Assembly (NCBI GenBank): GCA_031406385.1
Contig: JANOHI010000012.1
Coordinates: 7,110 to 71,109, forward strand
Origin: Acidimicrobiia bacterium
Lineage (GTDB): Bacteria > Actinomycetota > Acidimicrobiia > Acidimicrobiales > JANYDT01
DNA length: 64,000 bases
Reading direction: 5' to 3'
The notes under the pieces are model-generated. The model was not told the origin of the DNA. It ran no database searches and worked only from the letters and a program-made list of their open reading frames with translations. Positions 3 through 38,824 of the stretch are shown in pieces. The position numbers and the translations under genes are program-made. How positions within the stretch are numbered: the stretch's first letter is position 1; every line of letters begins with the position of its first letter.

Positions 3-941
3 TTGACGCGCCGCATCGCCGCTGATAACGGGCTTGGCGAGAAAGTCCACCATCATCACGCTCGGTCGACCGAGATCGCCCTCGACCGGCTGGCCGATGT
101 GGTTGTCTGCGATCAGATCGGCGGCCTCGTGCACGACGCCGGGATCCTTCGGTTCTTTGCCGATGCGCGCAAGCGTCTGTCATCACCCGGGGCAACGCTC
201 GTACCCGCTTCGTTCCGGATCTACCTCGCTCCGGCGTGTTTCGACGAGGGCCGCGAGGCAGTCGAGTTCTGGTCCTCACGACCGGGCAACATCGATGTCT
301 CCGCCGCACGTGTGTTCGCCGTTAACACCGAGTGGCACTATGCACGAGTCGCGGGTTCGTTTCCGCTGGCCGACGGAGCCGGCATTGCCGAGTTCTCTTC
401 CGATCACGACGAACCGATCTCGGGGAAAGCAACCTTCACCATTCATACCAAAGGGCGTATGGATGGTCTGATGGGTTGGTTCGACGCTCAGATGTCGCCG
501 TCGGTTCGGCTGAGCAATGACCCTTGGTCGCCCGAGCGCTTCGACAGGTGGTGCAATTTCTACCCGATCGAATCATCTGTCGATCTCACACCTGGCGACC
601 GAGTGGAGGTCTCGCTCGAAATCCGACCGAAGCTCAACCTCGTTGCCTGGGACATCACGGTCCGGCCCGAAGGTGGGCAAGCACAGCGATTCCGCCATTC
701 CACGCTCACCGGCACCTTCGTCACCAGAGCCTCGTTCGATCGACGGACCGAGGAGAAGGCTCCGGTACCGTCGGGCCGAGTGGAGATTGTGCGCGAGGTC
801 CTTGCCTTCATCGATGGAAGTCGTTCCCGGGCGGACATCGTGCAGGCGCTCGCTGGTCGAGTGGGTACCGACTTCTCAACGGAAGCGCAGCTGGACAGGT
901 TTGTGGGCAACTGCATTGAGCTCACGAGAGCGTTGACGTGA
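3..941 (+). CDS. PRMT-like class I SAM-dependent methyltransferase (5' end cut by window edge) with a C-terminal PqqD/RRE-like winged-helix extension
   Basis: The ORF is open from the window edge. Segments LADVVVCDQIGGLV, GATLVPASFRIYLAPA and DRWCNFYPIESSVDLTPGDRVEVSLEIRP align by eye with the post-I/double-E region, the following strand and the THW-loop/beta-barrel of protein arginine methyltransferases. The last ~55 aa (EIVREVLAFIDGSRSRADIVQALAGRVG..AQLDRFV) resemble the helical half of PqqD-type recognition elements. Confidence 0.6.
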   Translation: MTRRIAADNGLGEKVHHHHARSTEIALDRLADVVVCDQIGGLVHDAGILRFFADARKRLSSPGATLVPASFRIYLAPACFDEGREAVEFWSSRPGNIDVSAARVFAVNTEWHYARVAGSFPLADGAGIAEFSSDHDEPISGKATFTIHTKGRMDGLMGWFDAQMSPSVRLSNDPWSPERFDRWCNFYPIESSVDLTPGDRVEVSLEIRPKLNLVAWDITVRPEGGQAQRFRHSTLTGTFVTRASFDRRTEEKAPVPSGRVEIVREVLAFIDGSRSRADIVQALAGRVGTDFSTEAQLDRFVGNCIELTRALT

Positions 942-963
942 TCGTTCGCCGGCGGCGGTAGCA

Positions 964-1869
964 GTGAGAGTCGACGCCACGGTCATCGGCGCCGGTGGAG
1001 TTCACATCGCGCAACGCGGCGCAGCTGCTCCCGAGCGGAAGGGCGCGCTCCGTGTGGGTCCCGTCGCCGCTGTTCGTCAGCCGATCGACGCCCCGATCGA
1101 ATCGCAGCGCGCAGACCATGTCGTGTGGCGTCGCCTCTGGGCAGGCTCTGGTCGCCTGGTCATCGACTTTGTAGGACTTGCGATCGTGCAGATCGACGAT
1201 GCTGACGGACTGGTGACGTTCGACCGCGCCTTGCCTGCCGACGTTGAGCAACATCTTCTGCTCGATCAGGTACTGCCCCTCGTGCTCGCACGGCGCGGAC
1301 ACCTCGTGTTGCATGGGGCACTGATCAGCCTTGCGGGACGCGGGGTCGTGCTCATCGGCGCATCAGGCGCGGGAAAGTCGACTCTCTCTGCGTTTGCGTG
1401 GACGCGGGGTTGGTCGGTCGGGGGAGATGACGGAACTGTTCTCAGCACAACTCGGCCGCCTCGCGCCGAGCCAACGTACGCCACCGTGCGCCTCACGGAC
1501 GAAGGCGCAGCTCTCCTGGGATTCGACCAAAGTGGGGCGCCCACCGTCGTTGGGAAGACTCGCTTCCAAGGAGATTCGGAGCGTGGACTGCTGTCAGACA
1601 GCGTCACGGTCGATCTGATCGCGGCCATTGAGCCGACGACCGACGGCTCCGCTGCTCGGATGGAATCCATCCGCGGAGTTGCTGCCCATGCGATGCTTTT
1701 TTCATCGACGTTCCATGCCGACGTCGCGATAACGGGCAATCTGCCGACGGTCATGGCTGACCTCGGCCACGTCGTCGAGACGACACGGATTGGGCGGTTG
1801 TTCGTGCCCCGCGGAATTGACGGCCTATCGGCTGCGGAACGCGTTCTGCGCCTCGAGCTCGCGCGCTGA
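964..1869 (+). CDS. HprK-related kinase-like P-loop protein (lasso-cluster kinase type), copy 1
   Basis: A GTG start lies 22 nt after the previous stop. The P-loop GASGAGKSTLSAF followed by GGDDG matches the HPr-kinase C-terminal domain layout. The stop overlaps the next start (TGATG at 1867-1871). Confidence 0.7.
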   Translation: MRVDATVIGAGGVHIAQRGAAAPERKGALRVGPVAAVRQPIDAPIESQRADHVVWRRLWAGSGRLVIDFVGLAIVQIDDADGLVTFDRALPADVEQHLLLDQVLPLVLARRGHLVLHGALISLAGRGVVLIGASGAGKSTLSAFAWTRGWSVGGDDGTVLSTTRPPRAEPTYATVRLTDEGAALLGFDQSGAPTVVGKTRFQGDSERGLLSDSVTVDLIAAIEPTTDGSAARMESIRGVAAHAMLFSSTFHADVAITGNLPTVMADLGHVVETTRIGRLFVPRGIDGLSAAERVLRLELAR

Positions 1870-2327
1870 TGTTGTTGCCGCGTTGGGTGGCCGTCAAACG
1901 ATTCGTCCACGAACTATCCAAAACGACCCGGATGAGCGCGGTCCGCGCCGTCGGCGATGGATGCGTTGTCGCCGTCACGATGAAGCGCCGGGGAGTGCGA
2001 CCACTTCTGACCGGTTTGGGCAGTCGCGGCGACGTCATCGATCCGCTCCGGGCACGGCGTGTCGCCCACGCGGCTGATGCGGGGCTGGGCCTCGTTCCCG
2101 TGCGCCCGACCTGTCTGCGACGCTCCTTGGTGCTGCTTCGGGAGTTGCGGCGGCTCGGGCTGGCCGGGACCTTGCATGTCGGCGTGAGGAGCGAGAATGG
2201 AGTGGTGCTGGCGCATGCGTGGATACAGGTCGGCGACGAAGTGGTCAACGATGACCGCGCAGTCACGGACCGTTTCTCGTCGATCGCAGCCGGGGAGCTC
2301 GAAGACCTTCTGCCCCGGTTCACATGA
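1869..2327 (+). CDS. lasso peptide biosynthesis B2 protein (transglutaminase-like leader peptidase), copy 1
   Basis: 152 aa. The Cys/His/Asp signature PTCLRRSL...LAHAWIQVGDEVVNDD is typical of lasso B2 proteases. An ATGA overlap with the cyclase gene lies at 2324-2327. Confidence 0.85.
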   Translation: MLLPRWVAVKRFVHELSKTTRMSAVRAVGDGCVVAVTMKRRGVRPLLTGLGSRGDVIDPLRARRVAHAADAGLGLVPVRPTCLRRSLVLLRELRRLGLAGTLHVGVRSENGVVLAHAWIQVGDEVVNDDRAVTDRFSSIAAGELEDLLPRFT

Positions 2328-4048
2328 GCTTCACGATCGCGACGGCGCGGGGGAGCCGGGCCGTGGAGGCGCTGAGGACCACCAACGCCCAGCAGGTGGA
2401 CCAGGGAAGTGTCGCCGTTGTGCAGCACGGAGACGCGGCGGTCGCGTGGTCGACGACCTGTCTTTGGGTCGACGTTCACGACGACGGCGACGTGCTCGTT
2501 CTGGTTGACGGCATCTTTCACGGCCAGATCGCCCGACGTGGGCGCGCGGCAGCGGTTGCCGAGCGTTTTCGGGCCGTCGGTGACCGCTTCGCCGCCGGTC
2601 TTCTTGGCGATTTCGTCGTCGTCGTGCTCGACAAGAACCGACGACGCATGCTGGAGGCCAGGGATCCCCTGGGCGTACGACCCTGGTATCAGTCCGACAG
2701 CGGCCGTCTGCACGCTGCCGCATCTGACGTTGCGTCGCTCGTCAACCTCTCCTGGGTGAACACGCAGATCAACGAACGACAGGCGATCGAATATCTCGCG
2801 AATGTCTGGCTGAGCCGTGGCGAAACGCTGTATGCCGGCGTCCGGACGCTCGCGCCCGGCGCCACGTGGGTGTCGCGGACGGACGGAGGCGACACGTTCG
2901 CGCACCATCGTTGGGATGTGGAGCCCGATGTTGCCATCACTTGGGACGATGCCGCAGAACGGTGCCGGTCCGTGCTGGATGAGGTCGTGAAGGATCGATT
3001 GGATGGATCGTTCCCGGCGACATGCGAGCTGAGCGGCGGTCTCGATTCGTCAGCAGTTGTCGGAACCGTTGTTGGCTTGGACCAACCCGATCTTTTGGCG
3101 GGCAGGCTGCTGTTCGACGGACCGACTGCCGACGAACGGGAATACTCGACTGCCGTGATCGACCACTGGCACGTGGACTCGATTGGGATGCCGCCGTGGA
3201 TACCGACGCCTGCGGAATGGGACCAATTGACGCGTCAGCTCTGTCGACCTGCTCCGGCGCCGAACTTCGTGATGTTCGAAGGCCTGCATGGAGCCATGCT
3301 TGCCAAGGGCCGCCCGGAATGCCTGACAGGGCTCGGTGGCGACGACGCGTTTGTCGCCATGGGGAACGGGAGCCGGATCGTCAGCTCGTTCCAATTGCGT
3401 CAATACAGAACGTTGCGCCAAGTCGCTGCCTGGACGGTGCGCAATCCGCGCGAGTCGTGGCGTGAGGCCGTTCGTCCGACGTTGCGTCGCTTCTTTCCCA
3501 ACGACAGCACGCCTCCGTGGGTTCGTAAGGAGGCCGCCGAAGAGGCCGGAATCACCGAACTGCTCCGGCAGCGACCCCGCGCTGTCAGCGGCATCGCCGC
3601 CATCGACGAGCGCCTCGCCAACGTGACATCGGGGTATGACGCCTCGATCCTGGAAGAAGCGGCGGCCATTCAGGATGTGACCGGCCGTCGAGCCTCACAC
3701 CCGTTCCTCGACCCTCGAATGATTACGGCGACTTACGGCCTCAATCCATGGTGGCCGACGTATGGGGGACATACCAGAGCGCTTGAGGTCGCGGCGTTCG
3801 CCGACCTCCTCCCCCCGCTCGTCAGCGGAAGGCGGACAAAAGCCGAGTTCTCCGAGGTCTTCTGGGCGCTGCGCCCGGACGAGGCTGAGGCTTTGAAACT
3901 CCGCGACGGAGTGCTAGCGGCCGCCGGTTGGCTCGATCGGACAGGCTTTGATGCGCTGTTGCGCAGCGCCTACGCCGGCGACCCATGGTCTGCGATACCA
4001 CTTGCCCAGTGTGTTGCCTTGGACCGGTGGCTGACACAAACCCTGTAG
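2324..4048 (+). CDS. lasso cyclase (asparagine synthetase B-like, McjC type), full length
   Basis: 574 aa. It carries the PP-loop motif CELSGGLDSSAVVG. The N-terminal domain is present but lacks the Cys2 glutaminase nucleophile (MSFTIA..), as in lasso cyclases. Confidence 0.85.
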   Translation: MSFTIATARGSRAVEALRTTNAQQVDQGSVAVVQHGDAAVAWSTTCLWVDVHDDGDVLVLVDGIFHGQIARRGRAAAVAERFRAVGDRFAAGLLGDFVVVVLDKNRRRMLEARDPLGVRPWYQSDSGRLHAAASDVASLVNLSWVNTQINERQAIEYLANVWLSRGETLYAGVRTLAPGATWVSRTDGGDTFAHHRWDVEPDVAITWDDAAERCRSVLDEVVKDRLDGSFPATCELSGGLDSSAVVGTVVGLDQPDLLAGRLLFDGPTADEREYSTAVIDHWHVDSIGMPPWIPTPAEWDQLTRQLCRPAPAPNFVMFEGLHGAMLAKGRPECLTGLGGDDAFVAMGNGSRIVSSFQLRQYRTLRQVAAWTVRNPRESWREAVRPTLRRFFPNDSTPPWVRKEAAEEAGITELLRQRPRAVSGIAAIDERLANVTSGYDASILEEAAAIQDVTGRRASHPFLDPRMITATYGLNPWWPTYGGHTRALEVAAFADLLPPLVSGRRTKAEFSEVFWALRPDEAEALKLRDGVLAAAGWLDRTGFDALLRSAYAGDPWSAIPLAQCVALDRWLTQTL

Positions 4049-4076
4049 GAGTCAGCGAGACGACGGTAATTGTCGG

Positions 4077-4220
4077 CTACGGCCCGCTTTGGCCACAGTC
4101 GCTCATTCCGCCGACCTGAGTGACGTTCATACCGCCGCCGTCCGGGCAGCTGCCGCCCTGACCAAGGGTGAGGCTGCTGAGGGTACCGAACCGCTTCAGT
4201 GTGGGTGTCTTATATACCAT
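4077..4220 (-). CDS. lasso precursor peptide A1 (47 aa: MVYKTPTLKRFGTLSSLTL / GQGGSCPDGGGMNVTQVGGMSDCGQSGP)
   Basis: This is an internal ATG (4220) of the 74-aa ORF, with GGAG 6 nt upstream (4227-4230). The leader fits YxxPxLx3Gx5Tx exactly (Y3,P6,L8,G12,T18). The core starts with Gly and has Asp at position 8. It lies between the cyclase and ABC exporter genes. Confidence 0.75.
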   Translation of the reverse strand: MVYKTPTLKRFGTLSSLTLGQGGSCPDGGGMNVTQVGGMSDCGQSGP

Positions 4221-4327: not shown

Positions 4328-6280
4328 TCAGACCGGCTGTTCGGGCTGGTAGGCCGCCGCCTGGAGATTGAACAACCGGGCGTAGGTGCCATCGAGTTCG
4401 AGCAGCGCCCGATGCGTTCCCGACTCCACGATGTGTCCGGCGTCCAACACATAGATGCGGTCGGCGCTCGAGACGGTGCTGAACCGATGGGAGATCACAA
4501 TGACGGCCTTGCCCGCGCACAGCTGCCGAAGGCTGCCGAACAGCGCGGCTTCAGCGTCGGGGTCAAGCGACGATGACGGTTCGTCCAAGACGACCAGTGC
4601 AGCCTTGCGGAAGAAGGCTCGGGCAATTGCGACCCGCTGCCATTGGCCCAACGAGAGGTCGCGTCCGCCCGTGAACTGGGGGGCAAGAAGTGTGTCGTAT
4701 CCGGCCGGGAATTCCTCGAGGAAGTCAGCCGCTCCGGCGTCGCGTGCGGCCTCCCTCACCGCTTCTCGATCATCGGCGTGCTGCCACCGCCCGAAGCCGA
4801 TGTTCTCCGCTGCCGAGAAGAAGAAGCGGGTGTAGTCCTGGAAGACGAAGGCCACATGTTCGCGGACGCTCACGTCGTCCATCTGCTGAACATCTGAACC
4901 GTTCCACGACACCGTTCCGCGGTCTGCGACATACAGGCCGCCGAGCAGCTTGGCGAGGGTGGTCTTTCCAGACCCATTGGCCCCGACCAGTGCGATGACT
5001 TCACCCGTTCGAACGGTGACGTTCACGTCGACGACAGCGTCGTTCGGAGCATTGGGATAGCGAAACCCGAGTCGGTCGCTGCGAACGGTGAGCGGTTCGT
5101 CGGCGGCAAGATCGAAATGTGCTCGAGCGCTCATCTCGGCCTGACGATTGGCGGCGTCGCCGAGGAATCGGTCGACCTCGTGGAGGAAGGTTGTGCACTC
5201 GAAGATCATGCCGAATCCGCCGATGAGTGATTGCGCTCGTTGCGCCAAGAGCACGATGGCAGCGGCAGCGACCGCACTTTCGGCGATGGTAATCGTGCCC
5301 TCGTCGAGGAGGCGGATGAGGATCGCAAGCGTGCCGCCCATCACCACTGCGCTGATCAGCCGAGCGATCGTTCCGATCGCGAAGCGGCGGCGCCCAACTT
5401 CGCGAAGCCGCTTGATTCGGGCCGACCACAGCCCTGAGTGTCGGCTGGTGAGGTACGACGCAAGGTTGTAGCCCCGGACCTCCTTGGCGGTGTCCTTCTG
5501 ACTCAAGAGGTGAAGGAGGTAGTGGCGCTGTCGCGAGACTTCGGTCTGCTCGACCTCGAAATCGATGTTCAACAGTGTTGCCGCACGCGTCGCCAGCACG
5601 ATCGGAAGCGATCCCGCAAGGGCCACGAACAACAGCGCGGGTTGGATCATCGCCAGCGTGATGGCCACGGCAACCATGGCCAGCAGCGACCCGACCATGC
5701 CGATCAACGCCGTTGCGAGTTGCATAGGCCGAAACGTCGAGTTGGCGAGGACTCGCTCGAGCCGGTTGTGAAACGCCGAGCGGTCGAAGTCGATCAGGTC
5801 GGCTGCGGACGCAGCGCGCACAACGTCCTCCTGTGCCTCGCGAGCGAGCAGATCGGTGACCACCTTTTGCAGCTCCCCGCGCGCCAAGTTGATGATCGCC
5901 GAGATCGTGAGCAGGACAACGACGACCATGGCCCATGGCAGAGCGTCGCCGGCATCGGCGGTCTTGCCGAGGTTGACAACTCTGGTGAGGAGTTGACGAA
6001 TCGCTAGGAGCTGAGCGGCCGCCAGCAGCGAGCTGACGAGCTGAAGGACGGCGACAGCGACGAACTCCCGCCTCGCGGCGCGCATGATCAACCGTAGGGA
6101 CGACCGGAGCAAGGCAGGGAACGCTCGGAGCGAGCGTTTCTGCCGAAGGTCGACGAGCTCGTCGTACGTGAAGGTGTCTAGGTCCAACGGTTCGGGTGCG
6201 GCCGCGGTAGTCGCGCCTGAGGAATTGGCCGAAGCATCCTCGGCAGTTCCGGAGACGCCGCTTTTCATAACGTTCGTCAC
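4328..6280 (-). CDS. ABC exporter, fused permease-ATPase (McjD-like lasso exporter candidate)
   Basis: 650 aa with a multi-TM N-terminal half. It carries Walker A GANGSGKTT, signature LSLGQWQRV and Walker B LVVLDEPSSSLD. Confidence 0.9.
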   Translation of the reverse strand: MTNVMKSGVSGTAEDASANSSGATTAAAPEPLDLDTFTYDELVDLRQKRSLRAFPALLRSSLRLIMRAARREFVAVAVLQLVSSLLAAAQLLAIRQLLTRVVNLGKTADAGDALPWAMVVVVLLTISAIINLARGELQKVVTDLLAREAQEDVVRAASAADLIDFDRSAFHNRLERVLANSTFRPMQLATALIGMVGSLLAMVAVAITLAMIQPALLFVALAGSLPIVLATRAATLLNIDFEVEQTEVSRQRHYLLHLLSQKDTAKEVRGYNLASYLTSRHSGLWSARIKRLREVGRRRFAIGTIARLISAVVMGGTLAILIRLLDEGTITIAESAVAAAAIVLLAQRAQSLIGGFGMIFECTTFLHEVDRFLGDAANRQAEMSARAHFDLAADEPLTVRSDRLGFRYPNAPNDAVVDVNVTVRTGEVIALVGANGSGKTTLAKLLGGLYVADRGTVSWNGSDVQQMDDVSVREHVAFVFQDYTRFFFSAAENIGFGRWQHADDREAVREAARDAGAADFLEEFPAGYDTLLAPQFTGGRDLSLGQWQRVAIARAFFRKAALVVLDEPSSSLDPDAEAALFGSLRQLCAGKAVIVISHRFSTVSSADRIYVLDAGHIVESGTHRALLELDGTYARLFNLQAAAYQPEQPV

Positions 6281-10404: not shown

Positions 10405-10488
10405 CGATCCACCAGCCGAGTTCGAAGGCAACTACTATGCACACCTACGGACTGGAATCAACCTGCCAACCCTAAACACCTAGATGTC

Positions 10489-13914: not shown

Positions 13915-14103
13915 CTACGACGCAAATTGAAACCCGCCAACACCATTGGGAAGATCTCCTGGCTGCAAGGGTCCGCCCTGGACCGAGTAGAAACCGTCGG
14001 ATTTCGGGAAGAGCGGAGACTGCGCCAGCGTGAGGTCCTGCACAGACCCGAGGGTCTGGATCGCGGGAGCTTCGTAGGGCAGCTTGCTAGAGGAGTTGTT
14101 CAT
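13915..14103 (-). CDS. lasso-type precursor peptide A2 (62 aa: MNNSSSKLPYEAPAIQTLGSVQDLTL / AQSPLFPKSDGFYSVQGGPLQPGDLPNGVGGFQFAS)
   Basis: The leader fits YxxPxLx3Gx5Tx (Y10,P13,I15,G19,T25) and aligns position by position with the A1 leader, including the shared LTL(G/A)Q junction. It sits directly upstream of the cyclase-like gene. The C-terminal residue is Ser. Confidence 0.7.
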   Translation of the reverse strand: MNNSSSKLPYEAPAIQTLGSVQDLTLAQSPLFPKSDGFYSVQGGPLQPGDLPNGVGGFQFAS

Positions 14104-20532: not shown

Positions 20533-20682
20533 CCAACCAGGCGGTGCCTGAACAGGGTGAAGAATCGCCCGGCGGTGTTCTCAGCAGGCCGAACGGCCGG
20601 GCCGCTTTCGTCAAGCACTACGCTTCATTCGGTGGTTCTTGCTGACGATCGCTCGGCTCGTGGAAGCGGAAGGGGCGGCTCG

Positions 20683-22329: not shown

Positions 22330-22429
22330 TGGACCGGCCGGTCGGTCGACGCCGCATCCTCATCGGTGTCGGGAGCCAACTCGGCAACGGCGCGGTGGCC
22401 ACCGTGCTCTAGACGCTCGTGCTCCTCAT

Positions 22430-28518: not shown

Positions 28519-28544
28519 GAAAAGACCTGTGGCGTTGCCAGTCG

Positions 28545-31153: not shown

Positions 31154-32192
31154 GCGAAGCCAACTCCGACTCGATCAGCGCGACGTAGGAATTGGCGACC
31201 GTGGCGAAGTCGTATCGCTCGATTTGTCTCAGGCCGTGCGTCTCGAGAGTCGCTCGGAGGTCATCGTCGACAAGCAGTTCGACCAATGCCCGACCGAGCT
31301 CCTTGTCGGATGCAAGCCGTCCGAGGCGGCCGTCTTCGAGGACTTCACGTGACCCTTGGTTCGGCGTGGCGACGACGGCTGTGCCGCTGAGAAGCGCCTC
31401 GATGTAGGGAACGCCGAAACCCTCGTACGTGCTCGGCAGACAGAACACCCACGCGCGTCGGTACCGATCCGCGAGCTCAGCATCGTCGATCCGCCCGAGT
31501 ACCGAGACCCCTGGCGATTCCGGAGCGTCGGTGCACACCATCCACAGCTGGGCGTCGGGGACACGAGGACGCACGTAGTTCGTGAACGTCTCCACCAGAA
31601 GCCGCCCACGTTTGCGGCTGTCGTAGGTTCCGACGAACAGAATCGTCGGAACCGCTTCCTTCTCCTGCGGCCGATCGCCAGCACCACCGACGCCGAACAG
31701 CGAGGTGTCAACGCCGTTGGGGATCACCCGATGAAGCCAGGGGTAGAACCGTATCGAGTTCTTCGAAACCCCGACGACGATGGGCGTGCGAACCGACGAG
31801 ACGGCCTCGGTGACGCCGAGCGCAAACATGCGCAGCCGACCGAGCCACGTTGACTGGTACCGGGCCTCGTCAAAGCACGAGCCGTGCATCGTCCGAATGT
31901 GCACCGGAACGGCATGGCGCCGCACGAAGTGGTCGTCACCTTGCGCAATGAGGGCGTCGAACCCGCTGAGGTCGATACGTCGCATCGCGAGCCCCCACCG
32001 GAAGCTCCGCATCCGGCCGTGCTGCTCGAGCTGCCGATGTTCGTACAACGCGTCAACAGTCTTCGCCGCCGGGCTGAACATCGTGACGTCATGGCCGGCG
32101 GACAGAAGGGCGTTCGCCAGCCGGTGGGCCATCCACCCGACGCCGATCTTGCTGCTCGATGGGAGGTAGAGCGAGGTCATCGCGATCTTCAT
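31146..32192 (-). CDS. glycosyltransferase family 4
   Basis: It carries MKIAMTSLYLPSSSKIGVGWMAHRLA and YEGFGVPYIEALLSGTAVVATPNQGSREVL. Confidence 0.85.
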   Translation of the reverse strand: MKIAMTSLYLPSSSKIGVGWMAHRLANALLSAGHDVTMFSPAAKTVDALYEHRQLEQHGRMRSFRWGLAMRRIDLSGFDALIAQGDDHFVRRHAVPVHIRTMHGSCFDEARYQSTWLGRLRMFALGVTEAVSSVRTPIVVGVSKNSIRFYPWLHRVIPNGVDTSLFGVGGAGDRPQEKEAVPTILFVGTYDSRKRGRLLVETFTNYVRPRVPDAQLWMVCTDAPESPGVSVLGRIDDAELADRYRRAWVFCLPSTYEGFGVPYIEALLSGTAVVATPNQGSREVLEDGRLGRLASDKELGRALVELLVDDDLRATLETHGLRQIERYDFATVANSYVALIESELASHG

Positions 32193-34014: not shown

Positions 34015-35444
34015 CAGCGACGTGCTTCCTCGACGAGCGGAGAGGGGAGAGTCACGGACTCCCACCGTTGGAACAGGTTAGGTGGTGACGGTCGCTCCTG
34101 ATTCGCCTCGCCGATCCCGATGGCCAGCCAGCTGATCGCGCCGAGTTGAATGGCGAGGACCTGGAGAGGGAAATCGATCAGTGCGTGCACGCCTACGACG
34201 CCGAGCGCGACCTGCGAGGCGATGAGAAGGAGTGATGGTCGACCGCTCGACGATCGAAGGGCCCGAACGGCGCAGAACAAGGCGAACCCGGCGAACACTG
34301 CGCCCGGCAGACCCCATTCGAGGAGGAACTGGAGTGGGTCGTTGTGGGCGTTCATCCACATTCCCGTCGGATTTCCGGGTCTCCATGGGGTCACGATCCA
34401 GCGGCGAAAGACGCCGGGGTCGCGGTATCCGATCTCGGTCGGGAAGACGATCTTGAAGCCTCCCGGTCCCACGCCACCAGAAGCGTCTCGCCAGATCGAG
34501 GCAGCGACGCGCCACACGGCGAACCGAGCTGACACGCCGTCCGGTTCCGCGGCTGCAGCCCGCCACCGTTCCAGGTTGGCCAGAAACGCCGCAAACCCAA
34601 TGAGCGCGATGGCGAGGACGCCGGCACGGTCAGTCGTCCTCGTCGGCACCGGGCCAGCCCTTCGGCGGAGCCTCGCCCCGAAAACGATGGCGAGAAGGGC
34701 GCTCAGCACGATGCCCGCCTTCGAAACGTGGAAGACGCAACCGAAGGTCGTCGCCGCAACCAGACCCATGGCAACCCGTCGCTTCACCCCGGTCGAGGAA
34801 AGCGCGAGCACGATGCCCGCCGGCAGACAGAGGTTGAGGTACGCCGCAGCGTTGGCGTGGTAGGCGAACGGGCCGAAATGAGAACCCTCGCCCGGTAGCT
34901 GAGGGAAGGCGACCGGGCCGACGCCGAATCGGTCCAGGGTCCCGAAAAGGCCCAGCACGGCACCGTTGGCCGCCAACACCAAGACGAGGGCCCGGCGGAA
35001 CTCGACGCGTTGGGAAAGATCGATCAGCACGGCGGCCCCCAGAGCGAGGAGTGTCAACGTCCGCAGAACCGCCACACTCGCGTTGCGGTCGACACTGCCG
35101 GGCCATTCGGCGAGCAGTGGTTGCCGCTCGATGAGTCGCAGGGTCACCGGGTCATAGACGGTCCGAGCGTTCAGAGCGAGAAACCAACCCCACGCCAGGG
35201 CGAGGGTGACCCCGACAAAGACGCCGAATGGCCCGCGAGGCCATCGTTGCCTGAGGAGAAGTGCGAGGACCCACAGCCCGAGGCTCACGCCCAGCCCGAT
35301 CTCGATGAGTTTCGTCCGCGTTGGGGTGATGGGCGTCTGCAACCAGGGTGCCGTTGCGACCGTCGCGGCGAGGGCCGCGAACGACGCACCTTCGACCCAG
35401 CCCGCAACCCGAACACGAGCCGCCACGTCGGCAGACAGGTTCAT
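34014..35444 (-). CDS. O-antigen ligase / Wzy-like polytopic membrane protein, copy 2
   Basis: The ATG at 35444 lies 1 nt after the B2 stop (TGAcATG). It is multi-TM, with the loop VFHVSKAGIVLSALLAIVFG and NAHNDPLQFLLEWGLPG. Confidence 0.75.
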   Translation of the reverse strand: MNLSADVAARVRVAGWVEGASFAALAATVATAPWLQTPITPTRTKLIEIGLGVSLGLWVLALLLRQRWPRGPFGVFVGVTLALAWGWFLALNARTVYDPVTLRLIERQPLLAEWPGSVDRNASVAVLRTLTLLALGAAVLIDLSQRVEFRRALVLVLAANGAVLGLFGTLDRFGVGPVAFPQLPGEGSHFGPFAYHANAAAYLNLCLPAGIVLALSSTGVKRRVAMGLVAATTFGCVFHVSKAGIVLSALLAIVFGARLRRRAGPVPTRTTDRAGVLAIALIGFAAFLANLERWRAAAAEPDGVSARFAVWRVAASIWRDASGGVGPGGFKIVFPTEIGYRDPGVFRRWIVTPWRPGNPTGMWMNAHNDPLQFLLEWGLPGAVFAGFALFCAVRALRSSSGRPSLLLIASQVALGVVGVHALIDFPLQVLAIQLGAISWLAIGIGEANQERPSPPNLFQRWESVTLPSPLVEEARR

Positions 35445-35445
35445 G

Positions 35446-35892
35446 TCAGCCGAGCAGGGGCTGATCGAACGCGTGGAGCTGCGCCACGTGCTGGGGGTCT
35501 TCGTTGATGTCGGTTCCGGCCACCCGGACCCACGCATGTGCACCGAGACCTTCCTGCGTCGGGTCGACGCCGAGCAGCACCTGGGCGTCGACGCCTCGGC
35601 GACGCAGAAGCGTCCAGAGGGTGAGTGATCGGGGCAGACAGACTACGTTTGCCGGAGCGAGCCGGGTGGCGAGGAGCACGCCCGTTCCGATCCTTCGGGC
35701 GCGGTGAACGTCGTAGCGGTCCGACGGGTGGATCCTCCCGCGTCCGCCCAGCCGGACGGCGAGTTGACGTGCTGGGATCGTCCCTCGCCGGTGAAGCACG
35801 CGTTCGAACAGCGGGTTGAGGGCGAGGGCGGCGAGGAACGCGAGCTGGCTCCCCCGGGGCAGCGCGACGAAGCGACGGAGGCGTGAACGCAT
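35446..35892 (-). CDS. lasso peptide biosynthesis B2 protein (transglutaminase-like protease), copy 2
   Basis: VVCLPRSLTLWTLLRRRGVDAQVLLGV...GAHAWVRVAGTDINED gives the same Cys/His/Asp layout as the 1869-2327 product. ATG at 35892 gives 148 aa, and longer starts up to 35988 are possible. Confidence 0.8.
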   Translation of the reverse strand: MRSRLRRFVALPRGSQLAFLAALALNPLFERVLHRRGTIPARQLAVRLGGRGRIHPSDRYDVHRARRIGTGVLLATRLAPANVVCLPRSLTLWTLLRRRGVDAQVLLGVDPTQEGLGAHAWVRVAGTDINEDPQHVAQLHAFDQPLLG

Positions 35893-36077
35893 CCTGGTCT
35901 GAGGGACCGAAGGGTCGGTCGACCCGACGTTTCTCATGCCCGGGCAACGGTAGTCGCCGGAATTCCGCCGGTACGATGGGCCGAGCATGAGTTCCCCTCA
36001 ACGCATCGGGTACTCGCCGGTAGGAACCGAACCGCCTGTTCCTCGGCCGACCCCCCGCCGATGACCGAGGGGCAACG

Positions 36078-38372
36078 ATGACCGAGGGGCAACGACACCG
36101 AGCCATCGTGGTGTCGACCGCGGTTGGCGGAGCTCTCGGCGCAGCGACCCGAGGGATGGCTCCGACCGGTTCGCCGGTCATCGACACCATCGAGGCCGCT
36201 GCCCTCGGCGCGTTCGTGGCCGTTGCCGCAGTCTCGTGCCCTTGGTTGCTGCTCGTCGCGGCGGCGATGATCGGCACGCTCGTTGCGCCGACCGGGGTGG
36301 TCGCGGCCGTGGTTGTCGTCGGTGGTCTCGCCGCGTTGGCGTCGGCGACCCGACGAGCGGTCGGGTGGCCGGCGGTGTCGGTCGGTCTTCGGGGAGTGGC
36401 CGGCGCCGCGCTCGTGTTCGCCTTCTGCCGGATTCGCATCTCCGTGTTTCATGGTGCTTCGGCGCTCGTCGCCGGCGCGGTGTTCGTCTTGATCAGTTGT
36501 TTCGCGGTCGCTCGTGGTCGGCGTTGGCGACGTGCGTCGGTGGCGGCCGCGCTCTCCGGCCTGGCCGCCGGACTTGCCGTTGCACTGTTTCTCCTCGGGG
36601 GGCTCGCCACCCGAGACGACCTCAACGGGGCAAAGGTCGCCGCCGAGCGAGCCCTCGACGAAGTCCGCTCCGGCGATTTCCCGCGAGCAAAGTCGTCGCT
36701 TGCCGTCGCCACAGCTTCGTTCCGTCGCGCCGATCGCCGGCTCCGGCACTGGTCCGTGGCGCCGGCCGCCGCCGTTCCCTTCGTCGGCCGGTACCGCGCT
36801 GCCTTGGTCGACCTCACCCGGGCCGGTCGACGACTCGGTGATGACGTCGGGCGAACTCTCGGGGAAGCGGATCTCGATCGGCTCAAACCCCGAGGTGGGC
36901 GCGTCGATCTGGCCGAGCTGCGGCGGATCACCCCGGCCCTCGATGCCAGTGACCGGGCGATCAGTGATCTCGACCGCCTGCTGGTGCGGACCATGGCCGA
37001 CCCGTGGATGGTTCCACCGGTCCGGCAACGCCTGGGTCCGCTGGCTGAGCGCGCCGCGAAGGCACGCTACGACTCGGCCACTGCGGCAATGGCGGTGCGA
37101 TCCGGCCGGGCCCTTCTCGGCGGCGACGGATTGCGGCGCTACCTGGTGCTGTTTACGACACCGGCGGAGGCGAGAGGCTTGGGTGGCTTCGCCGGAAACT
37201 TCGCCGAGCTCACGGCGGAGAACGGCCAGCTGACCATCACCCGCTTCGGTCGCAGCGAGGAACTGTTCCCTCCGGTCGGTGGCCCGGCGTTGACCATCAC
37301 GGGTCCCCCTGGATGGGCGGCTTCGTGGGCGAGATTCGGCGGAATCAGCCCGGAGAACGGGAAGATGCTGCGGGACTACTGGCTTGCCATCACCATGCCT
37401 CCGAGTCTCTCTGACGTCGGCGAACTGGCGGCGGAGATCTACCCGCAGGTCGGCGGCTCGCCTATCGACGGAGTGATCGCCGTGGATCCGTTCGGCTTGA
37501 GTGCGCTCCTGGCACTGACCGGGCCGATCAACGTGCCGAGCATCGGGACGAACCTCGACTCGTCGTCCGTGGTCGAATACCTCGTGCGGACGCAGTACCG
37601 CGACTTCGATACCAACGAGACCCGTGTTGACGGCCTGGAAGCGGTGGCACTGGCAACCACCGAAGCGCTTCTCGGCACCGGTTCCTCGCTTCCCTCTCCC
37701 CCGGACATTGCGAAGATTCTGAGTCCGGCAGCGCGGGCGAACCATCTCACGATGTGGTCGCGCCGAAGGGACGAGGAGGCGCTCCTTGGACGCATCGGGG
37801 CCGACAACGCTCTTCCACCGGTCAACGGGGATTCGCTTGCCGTCGTGTTTCAGAGCATCTCGTCGTCGAAGCTCGACGCCTTCACGAGGCGCTCCATCGA
37901 CTACGAAGCGACGGTGGACCCGAAGACCGGGGCGGCAAGAGGCGACATCACGGTCACCATCCGCAACGATGCCACCGAGACTGGTCTGCCCCCGTATGTC
38001 TACGGATTCAAGCCGGCGACCGGCGAGACCTCCTACGGCGAGCATATGCTCTATGTGACGGTGTACACGGCGTATCCCGTCGTCACCGCAACTGTGAACG
38101 GGGCGACCACGAACGTGTGGCGGTGGACTGAGCACGGACGCAATGCCACGACCGCGTTCATCCGGATTCCGGCTGGGCGGACGGAGGAGGTCCGGTTTTC
38201 GCTCCGGGGCTACCTGCCGCCGAACAGCACGTATCGCCTCGCCGTTCGTGCCCAAACCTCGGGGACCACCCCGGACCGGTACCGGATCCGGGTCAACGCC
38301 GGGGGGGCGGATGCTCTCGCCGTTGACGAGGAAATCGAGGGTGTACGGCGGTTCAAAGAAGGGGTACGATGA
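36078..38372 (+). CDS. DUF4012-like membrane protein
   Basis: The N-terminus is multi-TM. RYLVLFTTPAEARGLGGFAGNFAELTAENGQLTI resembles the core block of DUF4012 proteins common in actinobacterial polysaccharide loci. Confidence 0.75.
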   Translation: MTEGQRHRAIVVSTAVGGALGAATRGMAPTGSPVIDTIEAAALGAFVAVAAVSCPWLLLVAAAMIGTLVAPTGVVAAVVVVGGLAALASATRRAVGWPAVSVGLRGVAGAALVFAFCRIRISVFHGASALVAGAVFVLISCFAVARGRRWRRASVAAALSGLAAGLAVALFLLGGLATRDDLNGAKVAAERALDEVRSGDFPRAKSSLAVATASFRRADRRLRHWSVAPAAAVPFVGRYRAALVDLTRAGRRLGDDVGRTLGEADLDRLKPRGGRVDLAELRRITPALDASDRAISDLDRLLVRTMADPWMVPPVRQRLGPLAERAAKARYDSATAAMAVRSGRALLGGDGLRRYLVLFTTPAEARGLGGFAGNFAELTAENGQLTITRFGRSEELFPPVGGPALTITGPPGWAASWARFGGISPENGKMLRDYWLAITMPPSLSDVGELAAEIYPQVGGSPIDGVIAVDPFGLSALLALTGPINVPSIGTNLDSSSVVEYLVRTQYRDFDTNETRVDGLEAVALATTEALLGTGSSLPSPPDIAKILSPAARANHLTMWSRRRDEEALLGRIGADNALPPVNGDSLAVVFQSISSSKLDAFTRRSIDYEATVDPKTGAARGDITVTIRNDATETGLPPYVYGFKPATGETSYGEHMLYVTVYTAYPVVTATVNGATTNVWRWTEHGRNATTAFIRIPAGRTEEVRFSLRGYLPPNSTYRLAVRAQTSGTTPDRYRIRVNAGGADALAVDEEIEGVRRFKEGVR

Positions 38373-38824
38373 CCACTGTGAGCATTTTGGACGGGAAGGT
38401 GAACAAAGGCTTCGGGCCACTGACCAGCGCGAAACGATTGGCCACCCGGTGTGTGGCTGTCGGTCTGTTCGCTCTTGCATCGGCCGGACCTGCTTCCGCC
38501 CAGAGCGCGACAAGCCAGTTACCGATCCCACCGGTCGTTCCGCCGTCGCTCGTCCCCGTCCCCGCCTCCGCAGCCCCAGCGGCCGCCGGTCCGACGATCA
38601 GCGTGCAAGGGGCAACCCTGGTGTCAAGCACGACGCCGACGACGACGCCCACGACATTGGCGATCAAACCATCAGTCCTCGGCGAGGCCCTGGTTGCCCC
38701 TCAAGTCAGTCCCGCAGTCGCATTCACCGGCTCCGACGTCGCTGGGCCGCTTCGGCTCGCGTTCACCTTGGGGTTGGCCGGTGCCGGGCTCGTCCTGGTT
38801 ACCCGCCGACGCCGCTCGGCCTGA
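38369..38824 (+). CDS. small secreted protein with C-terminal sorting-signal-like tail
   Basis: It has an ATGA overlap with the DUF4012 gene. The signal peptide reads RLATRCVAVGLFALASAGPASA/QS. The C-terminus is AVAFTGSD followed by a hydrophobic stretch (LRLAFTLGLAGAGLVLV) and then TRRRRSA. Confidence 0.65.
   Translation: MTTVSILDGKVNKGFGPLTSAKRLATRCVAVGLFALASAGPASAQSATSQLPIPPVVPPSLVPVPASAAPAAAGPTISVQGATLVSSTTPTTTPTTLAIKPSVLGEALVAPQVSPAVAFTGSDVAGPLRLAFTLGLAGAGLVLVTRRRRSA

Follow-up and report, generated by a model that had tools for sequence, protein, structure and literature searches.

Analysis of a 64,000-nucleotide stretch of DNA (hereafter, the window), whose source is most likely an uncultured actinobacterium of the Acidimicrobiia type, confirmed that a sugar-polymer gene cluster at positions 3–38824 is interwoven with two lasso-peptide gene sets. 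The lasso complement includes two precursors, two B2 proteases, two HprK-like kinases, one PqqD, one full-length and one short cyclase, and one ABC exporter plus the remnant of another. The glycan complement comprises five free-standing GT4 glycosyltransferases, one GT2-GT4-GT4 protein, a GT61, two Wzy_C-type and two Wzc proteins, an NTP_transf_5 protein (NTP5), and a DUF4012 protein. We regard it as fairly probable that this is a composite locus, in which two lasso sets lie inside a glycan-assembly locus and the peptide of set 2 is phosphorylated and glycosylated at its C-terminal Ser. By analogy with pseudomycoidin, the product of set 2 would most likely be a C-terminally phospho-glycosylated lasso peptide. 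The co-location of RiPP and glycan genes is already known from Bacilli; the actinobacterial short-cyclase family has so far been uncharacterised.

The RiPP genes share operons with glycosyltransferases, WaaL/Wzy-like proteins, Wzc paralogues, and the NTP_transf_5 gene. One operon has the order Pre2, short cyclase, GT4b, GT4a; another runs B2 (set 2), Wzy2, Wzc2, GT4e, NTP5, and a further one GT4d, GT2-GT4-GT4, a 92-aa protein, GT4c. Direct reading of the junctions bore out the claim of the initial annotation that RiPP genes are embedded in glycan operons, several junctions having overlapping stop and start codons. The TGA of the set 2 B2 gene (35446) is 1 nt from the ATG of wzy2 (35444), wzy2 and wzc2 overlap in TGATG at 34014, GT4e and NTP5 overlap by 8 nt, the TAG of the short cyclase (12705) is 3 nt from the GTG of GT4b (12701), GT4b and GT4a overlap by 4 nt, and 31 nt separate Pre2 from the short cyclase. 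The description of a Wzy/Wzc-type locus held for the two Wzy_C and two Wzc proteins; however, neither a Wzx flippase nor a priming phosphoglycosyltransferase (PGT) was detectable among the window ORFs scanned, so the locus does not resemble a self-sufficient Wzx/Wzy pathway.

Set 2 consists of Pre2, the short cyclase, kinase 2, PqqD, B2-2, and NTP_transf_5, and is best explained as a member of an extensive actinobacterial branch, so far uncharacterised, of the paeninodin/pseudomycoidin type. Its signature gene encodes a 392-aa Asn-synthetase-type cyclase (12705–13883, minus strand; Asn_synthase E 8e-15), which has only the Asn_synthase domain, without the N-terminal domain, and retains the SGGxDS and GEGGDE motifs. 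Precursor 2 (13915–14103, minus strand), recognised from its translation, has a leader ending in YEAPAIQTLGSVQDLTL, followed by a core that begins AQSPLFPKSD and ends GGFQFAS, with a C-terminal Ser. This core has its first Asp at position 10, beyond the range of 7–9 known for lasso rings. Kinase 2 (14636–15634, minus strand) scored 39.4 bits on Hpr_kinase_C, over the cut-off of 33.3, and has the Walker A motif GPSGVGKS. The free PqqD-family RRE (lasso B1; 15950–16222, plus strand; 50.9 bits) was found as annotated; the additional PqqD-like fusion was not, as the PqqD profile with filters off matched nothing else in the window. The leader peptidase B2-2 (35446–35937, minus strand; NF033537 65.3 bits, cut-off 33) opens its operon, and its homologues adjoin the short cyclase in the related loci L002 and L003. 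A Cys-cluster protein of the CxxCxxCC type (14146–14664, plus strand; weak YcgN-family match) was found by a jackhmmer search to be conserved beside the precursor in the window, L002, and L006 only.

Judged by its relatives, the short cyclase is a conserved short form and not a remnant, so that "truncated" does not apply to the second of the two cyclases annotated. The actinobacterial family falls into at least 199 clusters when grouped at 50% identity, and its members are uniformly about 390 aa long. Together with the precursor, B2, PqqD, the kinase, and the ABC exporter, it occurs in about 50 species; the carriers include Acidimicrobiia, Nocardioides, Terrabacter, Gryllotalpicola, Georgenia, Jiangella, Amycolatopsis, Actinophytocola, Pseudonocardia, Isoptericola, and Rhodococcus. 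For comparison, 43 loci of at least 16 kb were sampled, comprising the window and loci from other species or metagenomic contigs. A precursor and a kinase accompanied the short cyclase in all 43, B2 and PqqD in 42 each, and an ABC exporter in 41. Core sequences differ greatly among species. Of the 63 distinct cores, 54 end in Ser, and in another seven Ser is the penultimate residue; Asp occupies position 9 in 40 cores, position 8 in 17, and position 10 in four. The exceptional cores lacking Ser are accompanied by a methyltransferase, in two cases without a kinase. To our knowledge, the N-terminal domain is present in all characterised lasso cyclases; since the short cyclase is without it, the product may lack the threaded lasso topology.

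The linkage with glycan genes, like the conserved C-terminal Ser, is family-wide. Among the 43 loci, NTP_transf_5 was found in 34, glycosyltransferases in 28, Wzy_C-like proteins in 15, and a priming PGT in 13. At least one glycan gene (glycosyltransferase, Wzy_C-like, priming PGT, or Wzx) lies within 10 kb in 34/43 loci. Homologues of these RiPP genes thus very often neighbour glycan genes in other genomes, the opposite of the outcome that the initial annotation named as refuting. With growing distance from the RiPP core, glycan genes thin out about fourfold, from 1.67 to 0.41 per 10 kb. In six loci, including L003 and L044, NTP5 and glycan genes are both missing within 10 kb, so glycan genes are not a fixed component. 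The interleaving of RiPP with glycan genes that the initial annotation described occurs in at least four gene orders (the window, L002, L088, and L091); in most related species, however, the RiPP core is compact and has glycan genes to its sides, with none within the core span. In L012, L013, L016, and L033, the PGT gene touches RiPP genes in an operon-like manner.

This flanking arrangement would also fit a model in which two independent products, a free lasso peptide and a separate exopolysaccharide, are encoded on one island, which we consider rather unlikely. The peptide would then carry no more than a phosphate and one or two hexoses, the latter added via NTP5 and one glycosyltransferase, whereas Wzy, Wzc, DUF4012, and most glycosyltransferases would serve the exopolysaccharide, and the clustering would reflect only co-regulation or co-inheritance on a cell-surface or biofilm island. 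In line with this, only some loci have Wzc (5/43), DUF4012 (3/43), or blocks of several glycosyltransferases, and Wzc1 is a BY-kinase of the standard kind. The IS256 transposase and the decay of one exporter indicate rearrangement of the window locus. The paper on co-location of RiPP and capsule genes in Bacilli likewise proposed at most a possible biofilm role (Popov et al., 2026; PMC13381572). Against two separate products stand the translationally coupled operons common to RiPP and glycan genes in the window, L002, and L091, as well as the lack of Wzx and a priming PGT in the window. Moreover, the rare types PGT and Wzy_C occur within 10 kb of the core in 28/43 loci, compared with about 2% of 20-kb windows expected by chance (our own estimate), and the variation of gene orders among lineages argues for selection over a single inherited accident.

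The recurrence of the pairing in about 50 actinobacterial species suggests that the glycan is placed on the phosphorylated last Ser of the peptide. In pseudomycoidin, the C-terminal Ser is phosphorylated by the kinase PsmK, and the addition of one or two hexoses to the Ser phosphate requires the NTP transferase PsmN, an uncharacterised protein with an essential DxD motif (PMC6993621), although PsmN activity has never been demonstrated in vitro (PMC11912497). Most of the cores analysed here end in Ser, as do those of paeninodin and pseudomycoidin, in which this Ser receives a phosphate and, by way of an NTP transferase, hexose. The earlier statement that no product or function is established is outdated, since paeninodin, pseudomycoidin, and the LPP family have been published (PMC6993621, PMC9266682, PMC13381572). 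The HPr-rel-A label misses its curated cut-offs, at about 30 bits against 200; kinase 1 reaches 30.8 bits on TIGR04352 with a cut-off of 200. The interpretation as a whole was supported in part, through the glycan linkage and the glycosylation precedent in pseudomycoidin.

The PsmN-type candidate in the window is NTP5 (29963–31153, minus strand; PF14907 120 bits), a nucleotidyltransferase-fold enzyme with invariant KG, DxD, and DxHW motifs. Its AF2 model (pLDDT 91) has an NTase fold, with PDB matches to MenT1, LnuA, ANT(2''), and FKRP; for PsmN, likeness to ANT(2'') was obtained by Phyre2. The proposed likeness of NTP5 to PsmN draws on the Pfam family name and the modelled fold. The coupled gene GT4e (31146–32192, minus strand) has orthologues with 58–63% identity, which overlap NTP5 again in L002, L007, and L008.

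In the proposed phospho-glycosylation pathway, the YxxPxI...LT leader would be bound by PqqD, the C-terminal Ser phosphorylated by the HprK-like kinase, the leader cleaved by B2 after Thr(-2)-Leu, and the Ala1–Asp macrolactam closed by the Asn-synthetase homologue lacking the N-terminal domain. NTP_transf_5 and GT4e would begin a sugar chain on the phosphate (Ser-O-P-O-sugar), as in pseudomycoidin, further glycosyltransferases would extend it, and the ABC transporter would export the product. The WaaL-like Wzy1, Wzc, and DUF4012 might then lengthen the glycan on the exported product or transfer glycan onto it, or else make a co-produced surface polymer. The peptide itself might, as the initial annotation proposed, act as the polysaccharide acceptor, or as a regulator of the polysaccharide.

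Wzy1 (28545–29999, plus strand; Wzy_C 64.3 bits) is a WaaL/Wzy_C-type polytopic membrane protein with orthologues in L002, L004, L008, L009, L026, L088, and L091; outside the window, these orthologues occur together with NTP5. By analogy with PilO/TfpO-type enzymes, which glycosylate pilin at its C-terminal Ser, an en-bloc extracellular transfer may be envisaged here: the glycan would be started by a PGT, as in related loci, made on undecaprenyl phosphate, and moved onto the C-terminal Ser or phospho-Ser of the exported peptide by the WaaL/O-oligosaccharyltransferase-like Wzy_C protein. The AF2 model of Wzy1 (pLDDT 74), whose top PDB match is WaaL (7tpg, E 1.7e-6), is consistent with such a role, as are the ligase-type H[NSQ]x9Gxx[GTY] motif in Wzy1 and Wzy2 (HNx9GxxG in both), the near-universal C-terminal Ser, the PGT or Wzy_C proteins near the core, and Wzx in L014, L021, and L089. 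However, ligases and polymerases are inseparable by the Wzy_C domain and fold, and the sole NCBIfam match of Wzy1, to the O-linking oligosaccharyltransferase TfpM, has 25 bits against the required 600. PGT and Wzy_C hardly ever occur together within 10 kb in the 43 loci, the window has neither PGT nor Wzx, and the kinase and NTP5 would be left without a role; we consider this route improbable.

Among the other glycan genes, GT4a (10489–11619) and GT4b (11616–12701), identified by Pfam, are on the minus strand, as are GT4d, the 1078-aa GT2-GT4-GT4 protein, the 92-aa protein, and GT4c (22738–28686). The 1078-aa protein recurs beside the RiPP core or Wzy1 orthologues in L007, L009, L086, and L091, and the small-protein family adjoins its relatives in the first three. 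Wzc1 (20557–22329, plus strand), a PCP/BY-kinase, scored 149 bits on TIGR01007 (cut-off 108) and has the motifs Walker A, A', and B as well as a cluster of Tyr residues at its C terminus. Its paralogue Wzc2 (32206–34065, minus strand; 79 bits, under the cut-off; 33% identity to Wzc1) has GGDKT as Walker A and no Tyr tail, and thus looks like a pseudokinase. Wzy2 (34014–35444, minus strand; Wzy_C 36.9 bits), located between B2-2 and Wzc2, had no orthologue in the other loci compared.

The position of the pseudokinase-like Wzc2 in the B2-led operon, immediately after Wzy2, would suit a regulatory function, in which the peptide or the RRE–kinase–NTP5 trio controls polysaccharide assembly, for example with a phospho-peptide acting on the Wzc/pseudokinase pair. 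The glycan locus L090, with kinase, PqqD, and NTP5 and without B2, short cyclase, or exporter, points the same way. The conserved maturation and export set (B2 42/43, cyclase 43/43, ABC 41/43) instead fits the needs of a secreted product, and the strong core variation among species is unlike that of a ligand of a conserved partner, which makes such regulation very unlikely.

Set 1, comprising a methyltransferase, kinase 1, B2-1, the full-length cyclase, Pre1, and the ABC exporter, is best explained as a second, more ordinary lasso set, which probably relies, together with set 2, on the one PqqD and the one intact exporter. Its operon opens with a PRMT/PrmA-like methyltransferase (3–941, plus strand), whose 5' end is cut off by the window; it gave weak PRMT_C and PRMT5_C matches, and the full gene on contig L001 encodes 380 aa with a weak PrmA match. 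After a 22-nt gap follows kinase 1 (964–1869, plus strand), which scored 23.7 bits on Pfam Hpr_kinase_C, under the 33.3 cut-off, yet has an intact Walker A motif (GASGAGKS); both HprK-like kinases annotated were confirmed. Its stop overlaps by 1 nt the start of B2-1 (1869–2327, plus strand; Transglut_core3 E 3e-19, NF033537 62.7 bits, cut-off 33), which has the Cys and His motifs and 36% identity to B2-2; both B2 proteases were confirmed. The 574-aa cyclase (2324–4048, plus strand; GATase_7 and Asn_synthase) has lasso isopeptide cyclase as its top NCBIfam match, at 136 bits, under the 525 cut-off. Precursor 1 (4077–4220, minus strand), identified from its translation, has the leader MVYKTPTLKRFGTLSSLTL and the core GQGGSCPDGGGMNVTQVGGMSDCGQSGP; cleavage was read before GQGGSCPD, giving Gly1–Asp8, and a C-terminal Ser is absent. 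The homology of the two leaders was upheld: among 1123 window ORFs, the Pre2-family profile matched, besides Pre2, Pre1 alone (E 1.7e-4; next 1.7).

The sole intact exporter, MsbA/HlyB-like (4328–6280, minus strand; ABC_tran E 1e-29, MsbA-type NCBIfam matches), lies upstream of precursor 1 and has 54% identity to its counterpart in L002, a set-2-type locus. The annotated remnant of a second exporter was recovered by tblastn at about 22335–22681 (plus strand); it matches the intact exporter at 77% identity over residues 580–644, and fragment 276–316 is in another frame. L006 likewise has a fragmented exporter copy. With its own exporter decayed, its genes dispersed over 23 kb, and an IS256 transposase within the locus, set 2 might be viewed as a mosaic in decay, produced by rearrangements and now functionless. 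Such decay is highly improbable, as all set 2 ORFs are intact with catalytic motifs in place, stop–start coupling to neighbours is kept, and the layout is retained in the 85%-identical L006 and the syntenic L004/L005.

The 1334-aa secreted protein encoded at 6400–10404 (plus strand), with weak glycoside-hydrolase and galactose-binding matches and a Ser/Thr/Pro-rich tail, possibly has a role in glycan processing; GH5 cellulase genes are in a comparable position in the Rhodococcus locus L089. Two LuxR/GerE-type regulators (16219–17471, minus strand) also adjoin the module in L003, L006, L038, L041, L044, L045, and L050. The right edge is formed by the DUF4012 membrane protein (36078–38372, plus strand; 103 bits) and a Pro/Thr-rich anchored protein (38369–38824, plus strand), and DUF4012 adjoins B2 or PqqD in L002, L004/L005, and L026. 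Past 38824 lie an HxlR regulator and housekeeping genes.

The locus at 3–38824 contains two RiPP gene sets within a glycan locus, and this observation, made in the initial annotation, was confirmed as a whole save for one minor item. Long shadow ORFs are common in the window owing to its G+C content of about 64%; genes were assigned by Pfam and NCBIfam scans, and codon-position G+C was consulted where frames competed. The operon of set 1 lies on the forward strand and comprises a PRMT/PrmA-like methyltransferase (3–941, cut at the window edge), kinase 1, B2 protease 1, and a full-length lasso cyclase, with gaps of 22, −1, and −4 nt, respectively. The ABC exporter and precursor 1 (Pre1, 4077–4220) form a two-gene unit on the reverse strand. 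A secreted 1334-aa protein (6400–10404) has weak glycoside-hydrolase matches and a low-complexity Ser/Thr/Pro-rich tail of about 300 residues, where the codon-position G+C statistics were better for the shadow ORF 9252–10475. The GC3 of this ORF looked coding; it was rejected as a gene, being the shadow of the tail with a nonsensical His/Asp-rich translation.

Precursor 2 (Pre2, 13915–14103) begins a reverse-strand operon that continues with a short Asn-synthetase homologue (the short cyclase, 12705–13883), GT4b, and GT4a, with gaps of 31, 3, and −4 nt. The Cys-cluster protein, kinase 2, PqqD, and two GerE regulators are encoded by single genes; an IS256-family transposase comes next, then GT61, Wzc1, and the remnant of a second ABC exporter. 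GT4d, a 1078-aa GT2-GT4-GT4 protein, a 92-aa protein, and GT4c constitute another reverse-strand operon, and Wzy1 stands by itself on the forward strand. The reverse-strand operon of B2 protease 2, Wzy2, Wzc2, GT4e, and the NTP_transf_5 gene (NTP5) has as its successive junctions a 1-nt gap, a TGATG overlap, a 13-nt gap, and an 8-nt overlap. The genes for DUF4012 and a Pro/Thr-rich anchored protein form a forward-strand two-gene unit. The junctions listed in the initial annotation were found in the DNA as stated there.

To the right of 38.8 kb, unrelated housekeeping and catabolic genes are located. The stretch 39000–64000 encodes HxlR, a trypsin-PDZ protease, a Rieske oxygenase, a threonine-dehydratase-like PALP-ACT protein, two P450s, a limonene-epoxide-hydrolase-like protein, an acyl-CoA-synthetase-like AMP-binding enzyme, APH-type kinases, and an MFS transporter; no tRNA genes or Rfam families were found in the 64-kb window. 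The flank with HxlR, trypsin-PDZ, and PALP-ACT is syntenic with L004 and L005, two of the homologous loci collected from other species and metagenomic contigs (given L numbers here). Thus, the locus occupies the same chromosomal place in these relatives.

The duplication of the RiPP genes was borne out in most of its parts. A profile of the Pre2 family (60-odd relatives) additionally selected Pre1 alone among 1123 window ORFs (E-value of 1.7e-4 versus 1.7 for the next ORF), and the alignment spans the leader and the ring of Pre1 up to the Asp. Both B2 proteases exceed the NF033537 cut-off of 33 (62.7 and 65.3 bits) and contain the Cys and His motifs. Of the two proposed HprK-like kinases, the second scores above the Hpr_kinase_C cut-off of Pfam and the first below it, although kinase 1 has the P-loop. 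The exporter remnant matches the final 65 residues of the intact exporter with 77% identity, and a further fragment lies in another frame. The PqqD-type RRE (B1) scores 50.9 bits with PF05402 and 35.3 bits with the lasso-specific NCBIfam model, compared to a cut-off of 80. It is present in a single copy: with all filters off, the PqqD family profile matched only 15950–16222 in the window, so neither a second PqqD nor the “PqqD-like fusion” of the initial annotation was recovered. Such fusions occur elsewhere, as B2-PqqD proteins in L038 and L045 and, in L088, as a protein in which a PqqD domain accompanies the kinase. Set 1 lacks an RRE, and the exporter of set 2 has decayed; a single PqqD and a single ABC transporter probably serve both sets.

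The HPr-rel-A naming suggested earlier did not hold. HPr-rel-A systems likewise combine an HprK-related kinase with a PqqD-family chaperone; however, against curated cut-offs of 200 bits for the kinase (TIGR04352) and 35 bits for PqqD (TIGR04353), the window kinases reached 30.8 and 29.0 bits, and PqqD had no TIGR04353 match at E ≤ 0.01. Membership was rejected, as the cut-offs were missed by a wide margin.

The cyclase of set 1 has the two domains expected in a lasso cluster, a GATase-like one at the N-terminus and an Asn-synthetase one. The short cyclase of set 2 (392 aa) retains the PP-loop SGGxDS and GEGGDE motifs and lacks about 200 N-terminal residues relative to its full-length paralogue; the whole of its family likewise lacks the N-terminal domain. 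Neither cyclase reaches the NF033535 cut-off of 525: the set 1 cyclase scored 136 bits, and the short form gave no match. A scan of one genome per species recovered short-cyclase relatives with 29–85% identity in about 50 actinobacterial species, the closest (85%) in a metagenome-assembled genome of Acidimicrobiia. A search of 1.84 billion cluster representatives returned 199 clusters at E ≤ 1e-30, and all of the best 150 were 297–439 aa in length. In addition, most stop-to-stop frames in the loci are too short to include an N-terminal domain. Judging from these lengths, the spread among species, and the frames, the short cyclase is a conserved minimal form and not a relic. A pseudogene, as one reading of the “truncated” cyclase of the initial annotation, was ruled out by the uniform shortness of the family. 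A sequence search of the PDB yielded nothing for the short cyclase or DUF4012. To our knowledge, the N-terminal domain is present in every characterised lasso cyclase, so its absence from the cyclases of at least 199 sequence clusters is relevant to the making of the lasso fold, and the minimal form could provide a smaller engineering tool. An extra full-length Asn-synthetase homologue (650–740 aa) was observed beside the short cyclase in L011, L012, L013, L016, L033, and L035.

The family precursors have the common leader YEAPxIxxLGSVxDLT(L/Q). The lasso-precursor pattern against which they were compared, and which they were taken to fit, consists of a leader of the type YxxPxL...Thr(−2) and a core with a small residue 1 and with Asp/Glu at one of positions 7–9. 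Among 63 distinct cores, residue 1 was Ala in 39 and Gly in 18, and the first Asp occurred at position 9 in 40, at 8 in 17, and at 10 in 4. The C-terminal residue was Ser in 54 cores, and seven more had Ser second to last. Pre1 has Thr(−2), Gly1, Asp8, and a C-terminus other than Ser, while Pre2 has Thr(−2), Ala1, a first Asp at position 10, and a C-terminal Ser. The rings of characterised lasso peptides comprise 7–9 residues; the Asp at position 10 in the predicted Pre2 core (AQSPLFPKSD) is found in four of the 63 family cores (the window, L006, L002, and L017).

Cores lacking a terminal Ser (...GGDDD, ...DSPIP, ...VFSG, and ...QSGP in the window Pre1) accompany a PRMT/PrmA-like methyltransferase (L018, L020, L042, L026, and the window), which suggests an alternative C-terminal modification. 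The kinase is absent from L018 and L020, two of the loci with such cores.

As judged from its genes, the system is a lasso-peptide system of the paeninodin/pseudomycoidin type. In paeninodin of Paenibacillus dendritiformis and pseudomycoidin of Bacillus pseudomycoides, which have an Ala1-Asp9 ring, an HprK-like kinase phosphorylates the C-terminal Ser; in pseudomycoidin, one or two hexoses are added to the Ser phosphate, which requires the NTP transferase PsmN with its essential DxD, and Phyre2 indicated a likeness of PsmN to ANT(2'') (PMC6993621, PMC9266682). Split B1/B2 proteins, an HprK-like kinase, an ABC exporter, an uncharacterised NTP transferase, an Ala1-Asp9-type ring (at the family level), and a C-terminal Ser are common to both systems. 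In the genes examined here, kinase 2, the C-terminal Ser (in Pre2 and 54 of the 63 cores), and a PsmN-like NTP transferase were all found; the terminal Ser is missing from Pre1. NTP5 scored 120 bits with PF14907 and has an invariant D122xD124. Its predicted structure is an NTase-fold model (pLDDT of 91), with PDB matches including MenT1, LnuA, ANT(2'')-Ia, and the ribitol-phosphate transferase FKRP, a range within which nucleotidyl and phospho-sugar transfer are not separable by fold. NTP5 thus resembles PsmN, compared through Pfam family name and fold, in the DxD and in an NTase fold with ANT(2''). A metagenome scan with a narrower NTP5 alignment gave two loci only.

Unlike the Bacillota systems, the one in the window belongs to Actinomycetota, its set 2 cyclase lacks the entire N-terminal domain, and Pre2 has Asp at position 10. 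Dedicated GT4 enzymes, WaaL-like proteins, Wzc, and DUF4012 are added, along with a priming phosphoglycosyltransferase (PGT) in related loci. For the window system, unlike those of Bacillota, the product is a predicted one. New in this system are the minimal cyclase, its occurrence across actinobacteria, and a systematic recruitment of GT4, PGT, and WaaL-like genes. Literature searches on cyclases without the N-terminal domain and on an actinobacterial lasso–glycan linkage, conducted mostly outside subscription journals and constituting weak evidence, found nothing.

Paeninodin-like lasso and LPP clusters have been described within capsular polysaccharide loci of Bacilli, where a glycan modification was only suspected (Popov et al., Nat Commun 2026; PMC13381572). 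There, as in the window, a polysaccharide locus with a BY-kinase houses two adjacent RiPP systems whose YxxP leaders are similar, and the tool-kit of kinase, NTP transferase, and MsbA-like exporter is the same. In contrast, the window comes from another phylum, both of its sets are lasso-type with B2 and a cyclase, and its RiPP and glycan genes are joined in translationally coupled operons. A SipW-like archaeal-type signal peptidase I, the leader peptidase of the LPP family, gave no match in the region ORFs scanned. The lasso locus of Jiangella, described as uncharacterised in a genome-mining study (Mar Drugs 2026; PMC13608877), belongs to the same family as L023, with the leader end GSVRELTL, an Ala1-Asp9 ring, two precursors, B2, an Asn-synthetase-type cyclase, and PqqD. 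The kinase, NTP transferase, C-terminal Ser, and glycan genes, which L023 has within 10 kb, are not mentioned in that paper. Davasins, also lasso peptides, acquire their sugars by a different route, through iterative O-glycosylation by the GT2 enzyme IgtG (Sun et al. 2025; PMC11912497). They resemble the predicted window product in having an oligosaccharide on a single Ser; however, in davasins a single membrane GT2 links the sugar to Ser itself, without a kinase, NTP transferase, or Wzy/Wzc.

The conservation of the gene association was assessed with profiles grown from the window proteins against six-frame ORFs of all loci, and counts were made over the 43 loci of at least 16 kb. The precursor and kinase were found in all 43, B2 and PqqD in 42 each, the ABC exporter in 41, NTP_transf_5 in 34, and a glycosyltransferase in 28. 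Wzy_C-like membrane proteins, their identity checked with Pfam in two lineages, occurred in 15 loci, Bac_transf-type PGT in 13, Wzc in five, DUF4012 in three, and Wzx in two.

The association appears to be more than an accident for several reasons. A PGT or Wzy_C gene is present in 28/43 loci; with few such genes per genome, we estimate that about 2% of random 20-kb windows hold one, which indicates enrichment near the RiPP core. Glycan genes thin out away from the core, from 1.67 per 10 kb at distances up to 2 kb to 0.41 per 10 kb at more than 8 kb, and PGT genes are in operon-like contact with RiPP genes in Nocardioides (L012, L013, L016) and Pseudonocardia (L033). The overlap of GT4e and NTP5 recurs in the window, L002, L007, and L008, across which GT4e is 58–63% identical versus 38–43% for the cyclase. 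Wzy1 orthologues and the 1078-aa GT2-GT4-GT4 protein reappear beside NTP5 or the RiPP core in L007, L008, L009, L026, L086, L088, and L091, and the RiPP and glycan genes are interleaved in differing orders in the window, L002, L088, and L091. In a cultured Rhodococcus, the order is Wzx, NTP5, ABC, precursor, short cyclase, B2, kinase, and PqqD, with adjoining glycosyltransferases and GH5 enzymes. Taken together, these comparisons make a functional linkage between the RiPP and glycan genes well supported. The case is weakened by six of the 43 loci, in which glycan genes and NTP5 are both missing from the surrounding 10 kb, by the compact cores of the majority of species, which are flanked by glycan genes rather than interleaved with them, and by the limitation of the Wzc/DUF4012 apparatus to an Acidimicrobiia-like subset. 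The main rival explanation is that of two independent products kept together for co-regulation, which we consider rather unlikely.

Within 10 kb of the short cyclase, the Wzy_C-like (15 loci) and Bac_transf (13 loci) genes almost never occur together (L006–L057). L013, L016, L022, and L023 have PGT and NTP5 and no other glycosyltransferase.

The best-supported product, from the gene content and the analogy with pseudomycoidin, is a C-terminally phospho-glycosylated lasso-type peptide. PqqD would present the leader, the kinase would phosphorylate the last Ser, and B2 with the minimal cyclase would mature the ring. NTP5 and GT4e might then begin a sugar chain on the phosphate, which further glycosyltransferases would extend before export by the ABC transporter. 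The earlier interpretation of the peptides as glycosylated, or as acceptors or regulators for the polysaccharide machinery, is supported in part: the comparative genomics bear out the linkage, and glycosylation has a direct precedent, whereas attachment to a polysaccharide, or control of one, would be a conjecture.

Wzy_C-type membrane proteins, the PCP/BY-kinase Wzc1, and many glycosyltransferases are features common to the locus and the Wzx/Wzy pathway with a Wzc BY-kinase. Wzy1 (64.3 bits) and Wzy2 (36.9 bits) pass the Wzy_C cut-off of 31.7. Wzy1 has a WaaL-like fold (7tpg, E-value of 1.7e-6) and both proteins contain an HNx9GxxG ligase-type motif, features that do not separate ligase from polymerase. 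Membership of Wzy1 in the O-linking oligosaccharyltransferases (TfpM/PilO/PglL) was rejected: with TfpM NF058641, it scored 24.9 bits versus an equivalog cut-off of 600, and it has in common with them only the Wzy_C/WaaL fold and the His motif. Wzc1 and Wzc2 (32206–34065) are indeed paralogues, with 33% identity over 569 residues. Wzc1 scored 149 bits versus a TIGR01007 cut-off of 108 and has a five-Tyr tail; Wzc2 reached 79 bits, its Walker A motif is spoiled (GGDKT), and its C-terminal Tyr cluster is absent. Thus, Wzc1 looks canonical and Wzc2 looks like a tyrosine pseudokinase. The Wzc-like genes adjoining B2 in L002 and L004 are also weak-scoring.

Unlike in that pathway, RiPP genes lie inside the operons, and no Polysacc_synt, Bac_transf, or WecA-type match to Wzx or an initiating PGT was found among the window ORFs scanned, the left edge of the locus being cut by the window; PGT (13/43) or Wzx (L014, L021, L089) is present in related loci. 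By its gene content, the window thus looks unlike a self-sufficient Wzx/Wzy pathway, which leaves room for a phospho-peptide as the polymer acceptor or primer. The lasso-type peptide could accordingly be imagined as a polysaccharide primer or end-cap, its C-terminal phospho-Ser taking the place of undecaprenyl phosphate or of a lipid or protein acceptor. A long glycan would be assembled on the peptide, or joined to it, by PGT, NTP_transf_5, GT4, and WaaL-like enzymes, and Wzc and DUF4012 would control its length and export. We regard this as improbable; if true, such a peptide-phosphate-glycan conjugate would represent a class of bacterial glycoconjugates not yet described and widespread in Actinomycetota.

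The phospho-glycosylated lasso-type peptide remains our preferred product, and it leads to the prediction of a C-terminal Ser carrying phosphate and then sugars. The module lies beside glycan-priming, -extending, and ligase-like genes in about 50 actinobacterial species, many of them cultured, which offers a testable handle on the role of paeninodin-type phosphorylated and glycosylated lasso peptides and on their placement in capsule loci.

In L090 (5978–12293), a kinase, PqqD, and NTP_transf_5 are found within a glycan locus without B2, the short cyclase, or the exporter, and in L088 (1–3607), the protein combining kinase and PqqD domains is followed by a Wzc-like gene and NTP5. The kinase, PqqD, and NTP_transf_5 may form a module able to enter glycan loci separately from lasso maturation.

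Several smaller features of the locus were also recorded. The IS256/Mutator transposase (Transposase_mut, 396 bits) and GT61 lie at 17999–20532, between the GerE pair and Wzc1. They look like a recent insertion because the corresponding junction is unbroken in the 85%-identical relative L006; a search for terminal inverted repeats and a target duplication at the IS256 ends gave none that were convincing. The 151-aa Pro/Thr-rich protein (38369–38824), translationally coupled to DUF4012, has no family match, and its end (VAFTG, a hydrophobic stretch, and RRRRSA) resembles a class E sortase sorting signal. The Cys-cluster protein (CxxCxxCC type, with a weak YcgN-family match) is conserved as a neighbour of the precursor and short cyclase in just the three closest loci (window 14146–14664, L002 12307–13068, and L006 6742–7263). 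The 92-aa protein (23910–24188), whose gene overlaps that of the 1078-aa GT2-GT4-GT4 protein by 4 nt, was the seed of a small-protein family adjoining this gene also in L007, L009, and L086; the L086 counterpart has 190 aa and faint hexapeptide-repeat (acyltransferase-like) matches.
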